From the NCBI RefSeq assembly GCF_003334815.1, contig NZ_QOWO01000013.1: a stretch of DNA of 64,000 bases; one strand, written 5' to 3'. Shown here in pieces: positions 3,131-47,049 of this stretch. The DNA comes from Escherichia coli. GTDB lineage: Bacteria > Pseudomonadota > Gammaproteobacteria > Enterobacterales > Enterobacteriaceae. The position numbers and the translations under genes were made by a program. The first letter of the stretch is position 1, and every line of letters starts with the position of its first letter. The notes under the pieces are model-generated. The model was not told the DNA's origin. It saw only the letters and a program-made list of their open reading frames with translations, and made no database searches.

Positions 3131-4315
3131 TTAAACGGGCTGCCCCTGATGCGACATCCGCGTCGCCAGCGGCAGCCAGCACAGCACGATCAACAATCCC
3201 ATTAAGGTCATCAACAACCCCAGGCTGCCCTGACCGGTTTGCGGCAACATCGCAGAGAGCGACGCCAGCACGCCGGAACCAATGTTTTGCAGACCGCCGA
3301 CCAGCGCGCCAGCCGTGCCCGCCAGGAAGGGGAACGGCTCCATCGCGCCGCTGGTCGCCAGCGGAAACAGCATCCCGGCACCGAAAAAGAACAGCGCGGC
3401 GGGAACGAGCAGCGTCCAGACATTCATCACGCCAAACCAGTCGGGGATCCACATCAGCAAGCCAGCCAGCAGGCAGCAGATAACCGACTGCCACATTAAC
3501 GTGGAGAAGCGTTTATTGGGACGTCCGGCAAACCATGCGCCAAAAAACGCTGCCGGAATCGGCAGAATAAACAAAATACTGACCGTCATACTGCTCAGCC
3601 CTAACACCGCGCCCATCAGCACGCCGGAGCAGGCTTCAAAGGCGGCAATCCCGGCCAGACCGCCAATCAGCATCAGCAAATAACAGTTAAAACCGCTGTT
3701 ACCGAAAAGCGTTTTATAACTGGTAAGCAGGCGCGTGCGCGGTGCATCGACCGGACGCGTTTCCGGCATCCAGCGGGCCATACTGAAGGTCACACCAGCA
3801 CAAAGAACCAACAAAAAGAGATAACAGGCGCGCCAGTTCCACATCGTATCCAGCAGACCGCCGATTAGCGGTGCGAGCAACGGACTGACGAGAATCCCCA
3901 TGTTTAACAGGCTGTTAGCATGGCGCAACTGTGTCCGTTCATATAAATCTCGCGGTAAAGTACGCGCCATTACGCCGCCAACGCCGGTGCCCATCCCCTG
4001 CATCGCGCTGGCGGCAATCAACACCGTCAAACTGGAGGTCGTGACCGCGACCAGCGTTGCCAGCATAAAAATGGACATTCCGACGAGGATCACCGGTCGG
4101 CGGCCCACGCGGTCGGAAATCGGGCCATAAAACAGCTGTGAGACACCGTAAGTCAGCAGATAAGCGCCCATTACGCTCTGCACCGCCCCTTCACGGACGT
4201 TGAGATCGCGCGCCATATCGGCAATAGCTGGAATATAAATGGCTTGCGCCATCTGACCGACGGCCACGAGTAATACCAACATCAATAACAAATTGACGTT
4301 TCTTTGCCTTTTCAT
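3131..4315 (-). CDS. emrD: MFS multidrug efflux transporter EmrD
   Basis: 394 aa from MKRQRNVNLL...; the ORF track's MIMKRQ start is 2 codons longer. Confidence 0.9.
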   Translation of the reverse strand: MKRQRNVNLLLMLVLLVAVGQMAQAIYIPAIADMARDLNVREGAVQSVMGAYLLTYGVSQLFYGPISDRVGRRPVILVGMSIFMLATLVAVTTSSLTVLIAASAMQGMGTGVGGVMARTLPRDLYERTQLRHANSLLNMGILVSPLLAPLIGGLLDTMWNWRACYLFLLVLCAGVTFSMARWMPETRPVDAPRTRLLTSYKTLFGNSGFNCYLLMLIGGLAGIAAFEACSGVLMGAVLGLSSMTVSILFILPIPAAFFGAWFAGRPNKRFSTLMWQSVICCLLAGLLMWIPDWFGVMNVWTLLVPAALFFFGAGMLFPLATSGAMEPFPFLAGTAGALVGGLQNIGSGVLASLSAMLPQTGQGSLGLLMTLMGLLIVLCWLPLATRMSHQGQPV

Positions 4316-4488
4316 TATCACGGATGCTTTTATAAAAATAATTAGAATAAGTCACTACGCATTCCCATAAATGCGGGAGAGGAATCTATCACATTGATGA
4401 ATGTTAGCCAGATATACGCCAGGAATGGGGAATTGTTTAGCGGCAGAATATGTAAACAAAAGCGGCAATAAATGTTGCCGGGAGAGAT

Positions 4489-4528
4489 GGTAGGGCGGAT
4501 AAGATGCGTCAGCATCGCATCCGACACC
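4489..4528. repeat. REP-like palindromic unit
   Basis: ggtagggcggataagatgcgtcagcatcgcatccgacacc resembles the E. coli REP consensus. Confidence 0.4.
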
Positions 4529-4540
4529 AACCCGCACGCT

Positions 4541-4572
4541 AAATATAAAAGGGGAGCGGTTTCCCGCTCCCC
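4541..4572 (-). terminator. Rho-independent terminator of tisAB
   Basis: ggggagcgg/ccgctcccc stem followed on the minus strand by a U-run, just 3' of the tisB stop. Confidence 0.6.
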
Positions 4573-4594
4573 TTTGGTGCGACTTGAATCTGAA

Positions 4595-4684
4595 TTACTT
4601 CAGGTATTTCAGAACAGCATCAAGCAGTTGCAGTGCTGCAACAATGAGTTTGAGGATAAGAATGGCGATATCCACCAGGTTCAT
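4595..4684 (-). CDS. tisB: Type I toxin TisB, 29 aa
   Basis: Hand translation of the minus strand gives MNLVDIAILILKLIVAALQLLDAVLKYLK followed by TAA; too short for the ORF track. Confidence 0.9.
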   Translation of the reverse strand: MNLVDIAILILKLIVAALQLLDAVLKYLK

Positions 4685-4785
4685 ACGCGTCTCCTGTGGT
4701 TCAGGAGCACTGCCAGCTGACGTACCTTTCCGCTGCCTGTTGCCAGCTGTTGTGCACGCGGTATCTCAAGGAGAAACGTTGTGCT

Positions 4786-4807
4786 TGTTGACATAACACA
4801 GTGTGCT
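4786..4807. promoter_or_regulatory. Probable IstR-1 pairing site in the tisAB 5' leader
   Basis: tgttgacataaCacagtgtgct is a 21/22 direct repeat of 5044..5065; about 100 nt upstream of the tisB start. Confidence 0.55.
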
Positions 4808-4918
4808 CACGCGGGGTTAAGGCGCTGACGGCACCACCCGTTTCAGCCAGGACTTAGTGCGCCGGGTAACGATGCGGCCCCCGCATAACACATTGCGTAC
4901 AGTGATATTATAGAAGTT

Positions 4919-4938
4919 TACTGTATAAATAAACAGTA
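4919..4938. promoter_or_regulatory. LexA box between divergent tisAB and istR
   Basis: taCTGTataaataaACAGta fits the CTGT-N8-ACAG SOS-box consensus. Confidence 0.8.
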
Positions 4939-4984
4939 ATATTTGGACAAAACGCAAACTGTGATCGATACTCAACTATGCACT

Positions 4985-5128
4985 AAATACGTCAAAATTC
5001 GTGCCGAAATTGCGCGTTCTGCGCGGAACACGTATACTTTCAGTGTTGACATAATACAGTGTGCTTTGCGGTTACCAGCCGCAGGCGACTGACGAAACCT
5101 CGCTCCGGCGGGGTTTTTTGTTATCTGC
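4985..5128 (+). ncRNA. istR: Antisense sRNA IstR (IstR-2 / IstR-1); 5' end approximate
   Basis: Plus-strand terminator at about 5098..5122; contains the 22-nt repeat complementary to the tisAB leader; position divergent from tisB. Confidence 0.55.
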
Positions 5129-5248
5129 AATTCAGTACAAAACGTGATCAACCCCTCAATTTTCCCTTGCTGAAAAATTTTCCATTGTCTCCCCTGTAAA
5201 GCTGTGCTTGTATAAATATTGTTAAACACAAAACCAACAAGGTCCCCA

Positions 5249-5347
5249 ATGACTACTTCCATGCTCAACGCAAAACTACTACCAACTGCGCCATCCGCCG
5301 CAGTGGTCGTCGTGCGTGTGGTGGTGGTCGTCGGCAATGCGCCGTAG
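5249..5347 (+). CDS. ivbL: ilvB operon leader peptide, 32 aa
   Basis: Hand translation gives MTTSMLNAKLLPTAPSAAVVVVRVVVVVGNAP followed by a stop; Val/Leu-rich control codons. Confidence 0.9.
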   Translation: MTTSMLNAKLLPTAPSAAVVVVRVVVVVGNAP

Positions 5348-5370: not shown

Positions 5371-5406
5371 AAAACCCCGCCGGCGCAAACCGGGCGGGGT
5401 TTTTCG
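5371..5406 (+). terminator. ilvB attenuator (rho-independent terminator)
   Basis: ccccgccgg...ccgggcgggg stem followed by tttttcgttt, between ivbL and ilvB. Confidence 0.8.
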
Positions 5407-5452
5407 TTTAAGCACCTCCCGGAAAGTCGGCCCAGAAGAAAAGGACTGGAGC

Positions 5453-7141
5453 ATGGCAAGTTCGGGCACAACATCGACGCGTAAGCGCTTTACCGGCGCA
5501 GAATTTATCGTTCATTTCCTGGAACAGCAGGGCATTAAGATTGTGACAGGCATTCCGGGCGGTTCTATCCTGCCTGTTTACGATGCCTTAAGCCAAAGCA
5601 CGCAAATCCGCCATATTCTGGCCCGTCATGAACAGGGCGCGGGCTTTATCGCTCAGGGAATGGCGCGCACCGACGGTAAACCGGCGGTCTGTATGGCCTG
5701 TAGCGGACCGGGTGCGACTAACCTGGTGACCGCCATTGCCGATGCGCGGCTGGACTCCATCCCGCTGATTTGCATCACTGGTCAGGTTCCCGCCTCGATG
5801 ATCGGCACCGACGCCTTCCAGGAAGTGGACACCTACGGCATCTCTATCCCCATCACCAAACACAACTATCTGGTCAGACATATCGAAGAACTCCCGCAGG
5901 TCATGAGCGATGCCTTCCGCATTGCGCAATCAGGCCGCCCAGGCCCGGTGTGGATAGACATTCCTAAGGATGTGCAAACGGCAGTTTTTGAGATTGAAAC
6001 ACAGCCCGCTATGGCAGAAAAAGCCGCCGCCCCCGCCTTTAGCGAAGAAAGCATTCGTGACGCAGCGGCGATGATTAACGCTGCCAAACGCCCGGTGCTT
6101 TATCTGGGCGGCGGTGTGATCAATGCGCCCGCACGGGTGCGTGAACTGGCGGAGAAAGCGCAACTGCCTACCACCATGACTTTAATGGCGCTGGGCATGT
6201 TGCCAAAAGCGCATCCGTTGTCGCTGGGTATGCTGGGGATGCACGGCGTGCGCAGCACCAACTATATTTTGCAGGAGGCGGATTTGTTGATAGTGCTCGG
6301 TGCGCGTTTTGATGACCGGGCGATTGGCAAAACCGAGCAGTTCTGTCCGAATGCCAAAATCATTCATGTCGATATCGACCGTGCAGAGCTGGGTAAAATC
6401 AAGCAGCCGCACGTGGCGATTCAGGCGGATGTTGATGACGTGCTGGCGCAGTTGATCCCGCTGGTGGAAGCGCAACCGCGTGCAGAGTGGCACCAGTTGG
6501 TAGCGGATTTGCAGCGTGAGTTTCCGTGTCCAATCCCGAAAGCGTGCGATCCGTTAAGCCATTACGGCCTGATCAACGCCGTTGCCGCCTGTGTCGATGA
6601 CAATGCAATTATCACCACCGACGTTGGTCAGCATCAGATGTGGACCGCGCAAGCTTATCCGCTCAATCGCCCACGCCAGTGGCTGACCTCCGGTGGGCTG
6701 GGCACGATGGGTTTTGGCCTGCCTGCGGCGATTGGCGCTGCGCTGGCGAACCCGGATCGCAAAGTGTTGTGTTTCTCCGGCGACGGCAGCCTGATGATGA
6801 ATATTCAGGAGATGGCGACCGCCAGTGAAAATCAGCTGGATGTCAAAATCATTCTGATGAACAACGAAGCGCTGGGGCTGGTGCATCAGCAACAGAGTCT
6901 GTTCTACGAGCAAGGCGTTTTTGCCGCCACCTATCCGGGCAAAATCAACTTTATGCAGATTGCCGCCGGATTCGGCCTCGAAACCTGTGATTTGAATAAC
7001 GAAGCCGATCCGCAGGCTTCATTGCAGGAAATCATCAATCGCCCTGGCCCGGCGCTGATCCATGTGCGCATTGATGCCGAAGAAAAAGTTTACCCGATGG
7101 TGCCGCCAGGTGCGGCGAATACTGAAATGGTGGGGGAATAA
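5453..7141 (+). CDS. ilvB: Acetolactate synthase I large subunit
   Basis: 562 aa; TPP-enzyme motifs; Shine-Dalgarno upstream. Confidence 0.95.
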   Translation: MASSGTTSTRKRFTGAEFIVHFLEQQGIKIVTGIPGGSILPVYDALSQSTQIRHILARHEQGAGFIAQGMARTDGKPAVCMACSGPGATNLVTAIADARLDSIPLICITGQVPASMIGTDAFQEVDTYGISIPITKHNYLVRHIEELPQVMSDAFRIAQSGRPGPVWIDIPKDVQTAVFEIETQPAMAEKAAAPAFSEESIRDAAAMINAAKRPVLYLGGGVINAPARVRELAEKAQLPTTMTLMALGMLPKAHPLSLGMLGMHGVRSTNYILQEADLLIVLGARFDDRAIGKTEQFCPNAKIIHVDIDRAELGKIKQPHVAIQADVDDVLAQLIPLVEAQPRAEWHQLVADLQREFPCPIPKACDPLSHYGLINAVAACVDDNAIITTDVGQHQMWTAQAYPLNRPRQWLTSGGLGTMGFGLPAAIGAALANPDRKVLCFSGDGSLMMNIQEMATASENQLDVKIILMNNEALGLVHQQQSLFYEQGVFAATYPGKINFMQIAAGFGLETCDLNNEADPQASLQEIINRPGPALIHVRIDAEEKVYPMVPPGAANTEMVGE

Positions 7142-46994: not shown

Positions 46995-47015
46995 TTCTCG
47001 CTTTGATGTAACAAA

Positions 47016-47049
47016 AAACCTCGCTCCGGCGGGGTTTTTTGTTATCTGC
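47016..47049 (+). terminator. rpmBG terminator
   Basis: ccucgc-uccg-gcgggg stem with one G-U pair, followed by a 6-U run; 34-nt identical to 5095..5128. Confidence 0.7.

Follow-up and report, generated by a model that had tools for sequence, protein, structure and literature searches.

The tisB/istR-1 locus

Between emrD (3131..4321, minus strand) and ivbL (5249..5347, plus strand), the 64,000-nucleotide stretch of Escherichia coli DNA analysed here (the window) carries the toxin gene tisB and the divergent, non-overlapping istR gene, which annotation, scans and published promoters (PMC11264685) resolve into two nested transcripts from two promoters with one common terminator (Table 1). These neighbours define the chromosomal site emrD / ivbL-ilvBN, the same location that is given for tisB/istR in the literature (PMC9040746). 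Positions 4400-5300 show 100% DNA identity to E. coli K-12 MG1655, and the toxin, sRNAs, LexA box, promoters, target and terminators are therefore the published ones. An initial annotation had proposed a complete tisB/istR SOS toxin-antisense module; this is borne out by the K-12 identity, by the RefSeq annotation, and by Rfam and NCBIfam models scoring above their curated thresholds.

The toxin reading frame, MNLVDIAILILKLIVAALQLLDAVLKYLK, comprises the 29 codons and stop that had been assigned to TisB and corresponds to RefSeq K-12 tisB (b4618). Its product matches two NCBIfam equivalogs at full length (1-29 of 29): NF011340 at 69.6 bits (cut-off 53) and TIGR04459 at 59.9 bits (cut-off 38). 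TisB depolarises the inner membrane, and its toxicity is neutralised by IstR-1 (PMC4147584, PMC2826370, PMC9040746). The LexA box TACTGTATAAATAAACAGTA, with its CTG-N10-CAG core, is read exactly where it had been placed; it begins 6 nt from the TATAAT -10 hexamer of tisAB, with 8 nt to the CTG core. LexA control of tisAB and istR-2 has been described (PMC4147584, PMC11264685).

On the plus strand, the full Rfam istR model (RF01400) aligns to 4990-5119 with 150.1 bits (gathering score 45). The longer sRNA, IstR-2, has a promoter that is the only sigma-70-like match of a promoter scan in the region, and is reported not to repress tisB (PMC11264685). For IstR-1, the promoter points to a start at 5045 (75 nt) and RefSeq places it at 5047 (73 nt), so T5044 belongs to IstR-2 only; nucleotides 1-12 of IstR-1 are predicted by folding to be unpaired (P>0.94). 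The plus-strand transcript had been expected to end at about 5122, a position corrected to 5119 by both the annotated IstR 3′ end and the end of the Rfam alignment. Two Rfam hits far under the gathering score were set aside, P6 at 5373-5558 as a terminator-driven chance match and naRNA4 at 4494-4526 as a REP-like hairpin.

Table 1. Features of the tisB/istR-1 locus (positions in the window)
Feature	Position	Strand	Basis
tisAB intrinsic terminator: 12-bp GC-rich stem, 4-nt loop, T-rich tail	4548..4575	-	Inverted-repeat and terminator scans
tisB CDS, 29 aa + stop, membrane-depolarising type I toxin	4595..4684	-	ORF, RefSeq b4618, NCBIfam
tisA ORF, 37 codons, AUG 4794..4792 inside IstR-1 target	4681..4794	-	ORF call
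tisB Shine-Dalgarno AGGAGA, predicted within stable structure	4690..4695	-	Sequence; RBS AGGAGA in PMC11264685 Table 1
33-nt segment in E. coli and L084, missing in other genera; lengthens standby-to-AUG distance	4752..4784	-	Alignment
IstR-1 target, single-stranded part of standby site in tisAB mRNA, ~+93 to +114	4787..4808	-	Repeat copy 4786-4807; standby, PMC6690012, PMC7708055
Invariant 29-nt core GUCCUGGCUGAAACGGGUGGUGCCGUCAG of 5′ structure element in +42 mRNA	4825..4853	-	Alignment
tisAB leader, +1..+41 of primary transcript; masks 5′ half of target, removed to give active +42 RNA	4860..4900	-	Start at 4900 inferred from -10 box (~1 nt)
tisAB -10 hexamer TATAAT	4907..4912	-	Sequence; PMC11264685 Table 1
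LexA box TACTGTATAAATAAACAGTA, common to divergent tisAB and istR-2 promoters	4919..4938		Sequence; related loci
IstR-2 promoter: -35 TGGACA 4944-4949, 17-nt spacer, -10 GATACT 4967-4972	4944..4972	+	Promoter scan; PMC11264685 Table 1
IstR-2 sRNA, 140 nt, SOS-induced	4980..5119	+	RefSeq annotation; Rfam RF01400
IstR-1 constitutive promoter: -35 TTGCGC 5010-5015, 17-nt spacer, -10 TATACT 5033-5038	5010..5038	+	Sequence; PMC11264685 Table 1
IstR-1 antitoxin sRNA: single-stranded 5′ tail, two stem-loops, terminator	5045..5119	+	Annotation, fold, pairing start
IstR pairing segment, 22 nt	5045..5066	+	DNA repeat copy 5044-5065
istR intrinsic terminator: 10-bp stem 5094-5117, T-run ends 5119	5094..5119	+	Terminator scan; Rfam alignment end

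A direct repeat that encodes an RNA duplex

The two transcription units are connected by a 22-nt plus-strand direct repeat. The copies, TGTTGACATAACACAGTGTGCT at 4786-4807 and TGTTGACATAATACAGTGTGCT at 5044-5065, are identical at 21/22 positions, as had been noted, and the one difference (C4797 vs T5055) becomes a G.U wobble in RNA and is no true mismatch. Because the minus strand encodes tisAB and the plus strand istR, a same-strand repeat amounts to RNA-RNA complementarity; the initial annotation had the strand logic right. The in-silico duplex prediction that it had suggested as a check returned 22 contiguous pairs at -36.5 kcal/mol. When both strands of the 64-kb window were scanned for duplexes, the tisAB site reached -37 kcal/mol, the next best unrelated site -23 kcal/mol, and the background -10.4 +/- 2.8 kcal/mol. 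Chance similarity without function is a vanishingly improbable account of the repeat. Analytically, the 1.1-kb region should hold 2e-6 such pairs by chance and 64 kb 0.008, shuffling the region 200 times produced none, and the repeat is kept at the same place in 22 loci from at least eight genera. Searching the whole window for the IstR 22-mer with up to three mismatches retrieved only 4786-4807 and 5044-5065, with none expected in shuffles.

The upstream copy had been placed about 100 nt from the tisB start, and it ends 101 nt from the AUG (4786 vs 4684). The resemblance to the reported standby-site mechanism that had been drawn from this distance is well founded: IstR-1 pairing ∼100 nt upstream of the sequestered tisB ribosome-binding site (RBS) has been published for this very sequence (PMC6690012, PMC7708055, PMC4147584, PMC5668327). 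Across related loci, the conserved duplex joins IstR 5045-5066 with tisAB 4787-4808, shifted one base from the DNA repeat. It begins exactly at the promoter-inferred IstR-1 start, and position 5044 is unpaired in 11/19 sequences. This frame refines the repeat as it had been noted; from the K-12 MG1655 system the locus differs in nothing.

Three further similarities were considered and rejected. Full-length IstR-1 and tisAB give -78 kcal/mol over ∼70 nt in RNAduplex, which would suggest a longer, older duplication; we regard this as a GC-driven artefact, because gapped DNA alignment outside the 22-mer is no better than shuffles (214/2000 equalled its score) and the IstR-1 stem-loops would have to melt. 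A second IstR-1 binding site at CATAACACATTG (4884-4895, in the +1 leader), a third but partial repeat copy, was dismissed; among the matches listed, this motif occurs only in Escherichia and Citrobacter leaders. In other genera the leader retains a CAGUGUG-like motif with IstR polarity in its stead, able to form a cis pairing with the target's 5′ half, and CATAACACATTG therefore fits the published model in which the leader masks the target. Finally, the repeat D3 (4775-4795 / 5198-5218, 76% identical) was taken as chance.

Conservation of the pairing across Enterobacteriaceae

Related loci were found via a contig pattern outside the repeat, GCGGNNACCANCCGCN{10,26}CGCTNCGGCG. It returned at least 120 stretches and proved less specific than estimated, since ∼80% of the stretches listed were chance matches in GC-rich genomes. 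At least 24 Enterobacteriaceae loci came from the pattern, in a sample that does not include Escherichia and Salmonella species representatives; 22 of the 24 loci listed had sufficient upstream DNA. The genera compared are Citrobacter, Enterobacter, Kosakonia, Phytobacter, Pluralibacter, Trabulsiella, Lelliottia and Superficieibacter. A Siccibacter locus also matches the istR pattern, with upstream DNA too short to judge the repeat. Pair counts refer to 19 distinct sequences, one from E. coli and 18 from loci syntenic with it (emrD-tisB-istR-ilvB), and count sequences, not events.

The architecture of the module is shared throughout. All 22 listed loci with enough upstream DNA have the repeat at the same place, at a spacing of 236-258 nt, in at least eight genera, and the Rfam istR gathering score is passed by 14/14 related loci tested. 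Among the matches listed, the order emrD-tisB-istR-ilvB recurs in every related locus with the relevant flank, a TATACT, TATAGT or TATAAT -10 precedes the repeat in every related locus, a LexA-like box lies at the equivalent position in most, and the spacing from Shine-Dalgarno (SD) sequence to tisB AUG is kept in 17 loci of the alignment. The tisAB -10 is TATAAT or TATACT, 8-9 nt from the LexA CTG core, in the 17 loci with both located.

Within the duplex, 94.3% of IstR/target cells are able to pair in the 19 distinct sequences, and sliding the partner by 1-3 columns lowers pairing to 22-50%. Compensatory A-U/G-C exchanges occur at 5051/4793 (6 vs 12 sequences, one break) and at 5056/4798 (15 vs 4, no break), one-sided changes are mostly U.G, and the observed covariation score was reached by 0/500 shuffles. 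Since the covarying segments are direct DNA repeat copies, gene conversion could in principle also yield such a pattern. In 6/19 sequences an A.C mismatch stands close to the 5′ end of IstR, at column 6 (the Kosakonia, Phytobacter and Superficieibacter variants), which indicates that perfect pairing is not strictly required; three other positions show single breaks, and L084 has a natural A.C mismatch at column 8. The similarity of the copies starts 6-7 nt past the IstR-1 -10 in nearly every genus and ends after 22-23 nt. The natural compensatory changes are independent support for the published pairing, and the comparison places its 5′ boundary at the IstR-1 start.

The same comparison bears on the idea that the repeat is a DNA-level element, such as a duplicated -35-like or protein-binding site, whose copies are kept alike by gene conversion. 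Both copies do contain TTGACA, a perfect -35 hexamer, the repeat core ACACAGTGT is nearly palindromic, and concerted change of the two copies would be expected. However, neither TTGACA is followed by an acceptable -10 at 16-18 nt, the promoter scan gave the IstR-2 promoter only, and in nearly every genus the similarity sets in at the IstR-1 transcription start and ends 22-23 nt on. One-sided differences are also strongly biased to T in the istR copy vs C in the tisAB copy (columns 12, 14, 21 and 23), a bias that is neutral only in RNA, as U.G. Direct biochemistry demonstrates that the RNA duplex forms and that RNase III cleaves it (PMC6690012, PMC4147584), and the literature reports that IstR-1 supplied in trans from a plasmid restores repression in a chromosomal istR deletion. 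A DNA-level role is thus exceedingly unlikely, and pairing between IstR-1 and tisAB RNA is the reading we follow.

A different role for the duplex has a precedent in hok/sok, where hok is coupled to mok: IstR-1 could block translation of tisA, to which tisB would be translationally coupled. The tisA AUG lies inside the 22-nt target, tisA ends within the first codons' stretch shared with tisB (stop and start overlap at 4681-4684), and the 37-codon frame is kept in >99% of E. coli loci (PMC11264685). Beyond E. coli this arrangement dissolves although the pairing with IstR persists: 15/22 other-genus loci listed have ACG in place of the tisA AUG, and frame and length vary, in several loci running into tisB in frame. 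The compensatory exchange at 5051/4793 is itself the change that destroys the tisA AUG; because an exchange preserving IstR pairing also removes the start codon, the comparison argues across genera that tisA is not a gene. Its translation product has no match among NCBIfam protein families, the literature reports no evidence of tisA translation (PMC11264685), and standby has been demonstrated instead (PMC6690012). Coupling to tisA is accordingly very improbable, tisA is probably not a real gene, and the target is better read as part of a standby site.

The published standby model for tisB

Published work distinguishes three isoforms of the tisAB RNA, an inert +1 primary transcript, an active +42 form and an inert +106 RNase III cleavage product (PMC6690012, PMC5668327). 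The predicted folds are weakly compatible with this series. Leader nucleotides 3-22 are predicted to pair with nucleotides 84-104 of the tisAB RNA, and in 11/17 loci among the matches listed a helix between leader and 5′ target half is predicted with P>=0.66. Leader truncation lifts the predicted unpaired probability of the target's 5′ half (0.23 before, 0.33 after); over the full target, the change from +1 to +42 is not significant (0.41 to 0.43). The predicted +42 fold leaves the target only partly open, with an unpaired probability of 0.48-0.50, and the SD/AUG region of tisB stays at ∼0.3 in the +1, +42 and +106 forms. Thermodynamic folding alone thus reproduces the +1 vs +42 accessibility switch only weakly. 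RNAalifold, run on 14 leader-to-target sequences, missed the leader-target helix and found no compensatory pairs in an alignment whose leaders differ in length and align poorly. Upstream of the target, the 29-nt core GUCCUGGCUGAAACGGGUGGUGCCGUCAG is identical in 16/17 aligned loci, with one extra C in the remaining one (L067); the 5′ element around 4825..4853 has been described as the S1-binding stem-loop/pseudoknot that forms the second half of the standby site (PMC6690012, PMC7708055).

These elements suggest the following course. LexA bound at 4919-4938, between two divergent promoters, would be cleaved after DNA damage, freeing both, with tisAB transcribed leftwards from ∼4900 to the terminator at 4548-4575 and IstR-2 rightwards. 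The primary +1 tisAB RNA would be inert, its tisB SD/AUG locked in structure and its 41-nt leader paired with the 5′ half of the upstream segment. Leader removal would give the +42 RNA, in which segment 4808..4787 is single-stranded and, with the invariant 5′ stem-loop/pseudoknot, would constitute the standby site. There, a 30S subunit would wait via protein S1 until the tisB RBS ∼100 nt downstream opens transiently. IstR-1, expressed constitutively under a separate promoter, would pair through its free 5′ tail (5045-5066 with 4787-4808, 22 bp including two G.U), excluding the ribosome, and an RNase III cut would leave inactive +106 RNA. Since the duplex excludes the ribosome and is cut by RNase III, TisB would be made only if strong SOS induction lets tisAB mRNA outnumber IstR-1; the toxin would then depolarise the inner membrane and lead to dormancy and persistence.

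For this sequence the key experiments are in the literature: transcripts mapped by Northern blots and primer extension, tests of RNase III dependence, toeprints, 30S/S1 binding assays, and work with delta1-41 and delta-istR strains. Binding of 30S/S1 at the standby site was shown directly (PMC6690012, PMC7708055), and RNase III cuts the IstR-1/tisAB duplex to give the +106 RNA, +42 being the only active form (PMC6690012, PMC7708055, PMC4147584, PMC5668327). The same body of work (PMC6690012, PMC7708055, PMC4147584, PMC5668327, PMC11264685) reports that restored IstR-1/tisAB complementarity restores repression, that the plus-strand RNA ends at ∼5045 (5′) and ∼5119 (3′), and that deleting or occluding 4787-4808 in the +42 RNA affects tisB translation.

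A rival view puts the weight on decay of the message. IstR-1 could act mainly via RNase III cleavage and decay of tisAB mRNA, with exclusion of standby ribosomes secondary: RNase III accepts a perfect 22-bp duplex as substrate, rnc and istR-1 mutants contain more tisB mRNA, and cleavage yields the inert +106 RNA (PMC4147584, PMC6690012). Yet in purified systems that lack RNase III, IstR-1 prevents the binding of 30S and S1, toeprint formation and translation in vitro (PMC6690012), and cleavage and steric exclusion are sequential and mutually compatible. A mainly degradative mode is therefore unlikely, and standby exclusion by IstR-1 remains the preferred account; our analyses found no contradiction to this tisB/istR-1 model.

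Relation to other type I modules

Several E. coli and enterobacterial systems share parts of this design. The closely comparable dinQ/agrB of E. coli is also SOS-induced, with divergent non-overlapping toxin and sRNA genes, a LexA-controlled toxin, an inert primary mRNA activated by 5′ processing (dinQ +44), and an sRNA that pairs via a repeat-derived stretch (PMC5668327). However, dinQ works without standby: AgrB induces a refolding that sequesters the SD, and the toxin is unrelated (PMC5668327). The enterobacterial zorO/orzO and shoB/ohsC are likewise divergent, with antitoxins that bind a long 5′ UTR well upstream of the RBS, mRNAs activated by 5′ processing, and a predicted 5′ pseudoknot and standby (PMC7708055, PMC4147584); unlike tisB/istR, they have no LexA box, other toxins and sRNA sequences, and strain-variable pairing regions (PMC11264685). 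The plasmid R1 hok/sok system shares a small membrane toxin, an antisense RNA, RNase III duplex cleavage and an mRNA that needs processing. It differs in that Sok is cis-encoded and overlapping and blocks the leader ORF mok, which is coupled to hok, and in that activation is by 3′ processing; in tisB/istR, the leader ORF tisA is not conserved and control is via standby.

We thus assign the locus, with a probability of about 0.97, to the chromosomal type I toxin-antitoxin module tisB/istR-1 of E. coli K-12, under standby control via IstR-1 pairing. Vogel et al. 2004 and Darfeuille et al. 2007 reportedly described the K-12 MG1655 pair (b4618/b4616), which is also the subject of Romilly et al. 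2019 and 2020. It is an already known, textbook system, and nothing is new in the locus itself: the finding is right and ordinary, because this is base for base the locus used to establish the ribosome-standby mechanism. That mechanism has been published for exactly these letters (PMC6690012, PMC7708055, PMC4147584, PMC5668327). Recognising tisB/istR correctly from raw sequence adds no new biology.

Distribution and outlook

The comparison extends the known range of the module. A published survey covers Citrobacter, Salmonella, Escherichia/Shigella and one Enterobacter (PMC9040746); beyond it, we find the module in Kosakonia, Phytobacter, Pluralibacter, Trabulsiella, Lelliottia, Superficieibacter and several Enterobacter species, in conserved gene order and with the pairing of IstR and target intact. 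Within E. coli, the cassette is missing from ∼20% of genomes, an absence already published for phylogroup B2. Among the matches listed, the target lies 101 nt from the tisB AUG in E. coli and one other locus (L084), vs 59-69 nt in the other loci with the tisB AUG identified; the 101 nt are explained by the 33-nt insertion in Escherichia. Taken jointly, there is good reason to believe that the module occurs in more genera than published, that the ancestral standby-AUG distance was ∼59-69 nt and the ∼100 nt of Escherichia is derived through the insertion at 4752-4784, and that the pairing-preserving exchange, by removing the tisA start, argues against tisA as a gene.

The tisB/istR-1 module is the reference case for ribosome standby and for an SOS-induced toxin that yields persister cells. 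Against this background, the related loci indicate that the standby distance is evolutionarily flexible (∼65 nt vs ∼100 nt), a point of possible interest for research on standby.

The tisB/istR locus

Positions 4400-5300 of the window are identical to the E. coli K-12 MG1655 sequence in reverse-complement orientation (window position x is K-12 coordinate 3858237 - x). RefSeq annotates emrD, ysdE, ivbL and ilvB as the genes flanking tisB/istR. The Rfam istR model (RF01400) matches 4990-5119 with 150.1 bits (gathering score 45), and the tisB ORF scores above the cut-offs of the NCBIfam TisB equivalogs. The initial annotation of a complete tisB/istR module, with a 29-aa TisB on the minus strand and a LexA box, thus agrees with the exact identity to MG1655, the RefSeq annotation and both sets of models. 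All sequence-level defining features of tisB/istR-1 are present, and the locus is the type locus itself, beyond family membership; its expression, processing and toxicity rest on the literature. The -10 box of IstR-1 would place its start at G5045, giving a 75-nt RNA; the RefSeq start lies two bases later. The IstR-2 promoter was the sole match of a promoter scan in the region.

Features of the tisB/istR locus (window coordinates)
Feature	Position	Strand	Source
tisB (b4618), 29-codon ORF MNLVDIAILILKLIVAALQLLDAVLKYLK	4595..4684	-	ORF and RefSeq K-12 annotation
IstR-2, 140 nt	4980..5119	+	RefSeq
IstR-1, 73 nt	5047..5119	+	RefSeq
LexA box, 20-nt palindromic TACTGTATAAATAAACAGTA	4919..4938		read from sequence
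IstR-1 promoter	-35 TTGCGC 5010-5015; -10 TATACT 5033-5038	+	PMC11264685 Table 1 hexamers, placed in window
IstR-2 promoter	-35 TGGACA 4944-4949; -10 GATACT 4967-4972	+	PMC11264685 Table 1 hexamers and promoter scan
tisAB -10 TATAAT	4912..4907	-	PMC11264685 Table 1 hexamer, placed in window
Terminators	4575..4548; 5094..5117	-; +	terminator scan

Several smaller elements surround the module. The small protein gene ysdE (4397..4471 (+)) is annotated between emrD and tisB and is followed by a REP-like hairpin (4494..4526), a sub-threshold match to Rfam naRNA4 (22 bits; gathering score 59.5). The istR terminator with its following bases (GAAACCTCGCTCCGGCGGGGTTTTTTGTTATCTG, 5094..5127 (+)) recurs with one mismatch 42 kb off, at 47015..47048 (+). 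Other E. coli genomes carry an exact 34-nt match to this segment directly downstream of rpmG, hence a second BLAST place per genome. The 3' end of istR has been noted to have short matches, which were taken as common terminator sequence (PMC11264685). Within the terminator, 5102..5117 is matched by an inverted copy at 5371..5386 in the ivbL attenuator terminator (16 nt, 94% complementary), probably a chance resemblance of two GC-rich terminators.

A direct repeat predicts an RNA duplex

A repeat finder recovered the 22-nt direct repeat noted initially, with copies at 4786-4807 and 5044-5065 and 21/22 identity. Chance expectation for a repeat of such quality is 2e-6 in a 1.1-kb region and 0.008 in the 64-kb window, and no comparable one arose in 200 shuffles. 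A whole-window search with the IstR 22-mer, allowing up to three mismatches, matched the two repeat sites only. Because tisAB lies on the minus strand and istR on the plus strand, this plus-strand repeat is RNA-RNA complementarity, as originally argued. The lone DNA mismatch (C4797 versus T5055) becomes a G.U wobble and 5066/4808 is an extra G.U pair, so the predicted duplex of IstR 5045-5066 with tisAB 4787-4808 has 22 contiguous pairs (-36.5 kcal/mol). When the IstR-1 5' tail was scanned against both window strands, the tisAB site reached -37 kcal/mol and the best unrelated site -23, over a background of -10.4 +/- 2.8 kcal/mol. In the predicted fold of IstR-1, the first 12 nt form a free 5' tail (unpaired probability >0.94) and two stem-loops come after it.

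Conservation in related genera

The pattern used to scan one genome per species covered the terminator and stem-loop 2 of IstR, both outside the repeat. Most matches were chance ones in GC-rich genomes. The matches listed include at least 24 Enterobacteriaceae loci, from Citrobacter, Enterobacter, Kosakonia, Phytobacter, Pluralibacter, Trabulsiella, Lelliottia, Superficieibacter and Siccibacter. Among these, all 14 loci tested passed the Rfam istR gathering score (59-133 bits), and emrD and/or ilvB adjoined the TisB-like ORF in every locus with relevant flank sequence. In 22/22 listed loci with enough upstream DNA, a same-strand copy of the IstR 5' segment lies 236-258 nt upstream, which, with the shuffles, excludes chance as the source of the repeat. 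In nearly every genus, similarity starts 6-7 nt past the IstR-1 -10 box and ends after 22-23 nt.

The two copies were joined as an artificial hairpin and pairs were counted on 19 distinct sequences. Counted per sequence, not per evolutionary event, 94.3% of cells hold a standard pair. Position 5051/4793 is A-U in 6 sequences and G-C in 12, with one break; position 5056/4798 is A-U in 15 and G-C in 4, with none. One-sided changes are largely U.G (columns 12, 14, 21 and 23). The covariation score was reached by 0/500 shuffles, and pairing falls to 22-50% when the partner is shifted by 1-3 columns. Because column 1 (T5044) is unpaired in 11/19 sequences and column 23 (5066) is paired in 19/19, the conserved duplex sits one base off the DNA repeat, starting at the promoter-derived IstR-1 start.

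Such concerted change could also arise by gene conversion homogenising the two direct-repeat copies. Selection acting on the RNA is favoured by the U.G bias and by how sharply the similarity begins at the transcription start. The same two features, and the fact that neither TTGACA is followed by a -10 box, contradict a purely DNA-level role for the repeat. Another proposal, repression of tisB via coupling to tisA translation, draws on the tisA AUG lying within the IstR target. The other genera contradict it: in 15/22 loci among the matches listed ACG replaces the start codon and the frame is not maintained, the pairing nevertheless being conserved, and one compensatory exchange is the very change that abolishes the tisA AUG.

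Two side observations concern individual loci. Enterobacter sp. EA-1 (locus L067) has no intact TisB-like ORF in a scan of ATG-initiated ORFs; a Shine-Dalgarno sequence and ATG are present, the tisB region gives a 26-aa tblastn match, and emrD and ilvB match in fragments only. The record may contain frameshifts from low sequence quality, or pseudogenes. Several loci of Enterobacter, Lelliottia, Citrobacter and Superficieibacter (L037, L058, L078, L087, L102, L103, L114) have a second CTG-N10-CAG motif (e.g. CACTGCGAACATTTACAGTA) over the tisAB -10/+1, beside the main LexA box. This motif, which has no equivalent at the E. coli tisAB transcript start, may represent another LexA site or chance.

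The standby mechanism

The mechanism has been published for this exact sequence: tisAB is repressed by LexA and its primary +1 RNA is inert; loss of 41 nt yields the +42 RNA, opening a single-stranded region that lies ∼100 nt 5' of the sequestered RBS; this region and a 5' stem-loop/pseudoknot form a standby site binding 30S via S1; and IstR-1 pairing over it prevents standby and brings about RNase III cleavage, leaving the inert +106 RNA (PMC6690012, PMC7708055, PMC4147584, PMC5668327). Either RNase III cleavage or steric exclusion may contribute more to repression; IstR-1 inhibits in RNase III-free systems (PMC6690012). The initial match of the first repeat copy, ∼100 nt upstream of tisB, to this standby site is borne out by published work (PMC6690012, PMC7708055). 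The original observation is confirmed and its interpretation supported.

A tisAB transcription start placed at 4900 would agree with the published isoform numbers. From it, +42 would be 4859, 51 nt ahead of the pairing site (a 50-nt window in PMC7708055), and +106 would be 4795, within the duplex. The predicted E. coli +1 fold pairs leader nt 3-22 with nt 84-104, covering the 5' half of the target, and leader-target pairing probability was ≥0.66 in 11/17 loci. Truncation raised the unpaired probability of this 5' half from 0.23 to 0.33 (Wilcoxon p = 0.002, across phylogenetically non-independent loci); the whole-target change was not significant, and RNAalifold found no covariation for the leader-target helix. 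In every isoform, most of the SD/AUG region is predicted to be paired. Of the 17 aligned loci, 16 share an identical 29-nt core of the 5' element (4825-4853), and L067 has one extra C. Folding lends partial support to the published mechanism.

Variation and distribution of the module

The tisAB 5' UTR has an insertion of 33 nt (4752-4784 (-)), downstream of the IstR target and ahead of the RBS structure, that is predicted to form a small local hairpin (UCUC-CUU-GAGA). Among the aligned loci from the matches listed, E. coli and 'Citrobacter sp. Awk 4' (L084) share it and all other genera lack it; the target-AUG distance is ∼100 nt in these two and 59-69 nt elsewhere.

The window encodes the K-12 variant of TisB, with Asn at position 2 (start codon 4684..4682). 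Ser at this position (N2S) occurs in 85% of E. coli loci and is more toxic at low induction (PMC11264685); the listed Citrobacter loci also encode Ser. Of 5,425 complete E. coli genomes, about 1,076 lack the whole cassette and retain emrD, ysdE, ivbL and ilvB, in agreement with published loss in phylogroup B2 (PMC9040746). In one of them (L124, 986..1139 versus window 4482..5171), homology ends at ∼4482-4491 and restarts at ∼5131-5172, with ∼115-155 nt of unrelated DNA between.

The system at this locus is already known. Three points from sequence comparison go slightly beyond the published accounts found. The 33-nt insertion accounts for the ∼100-nt distance in E. coli and L084. Conservation does not extend to the tisA start codon. 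Finally, a syntenic tisB/istR module is present in more genera than the Citrobacter, Salmonella, Escherichia/Shigella and one Enterobacter listed in PMC9040746.
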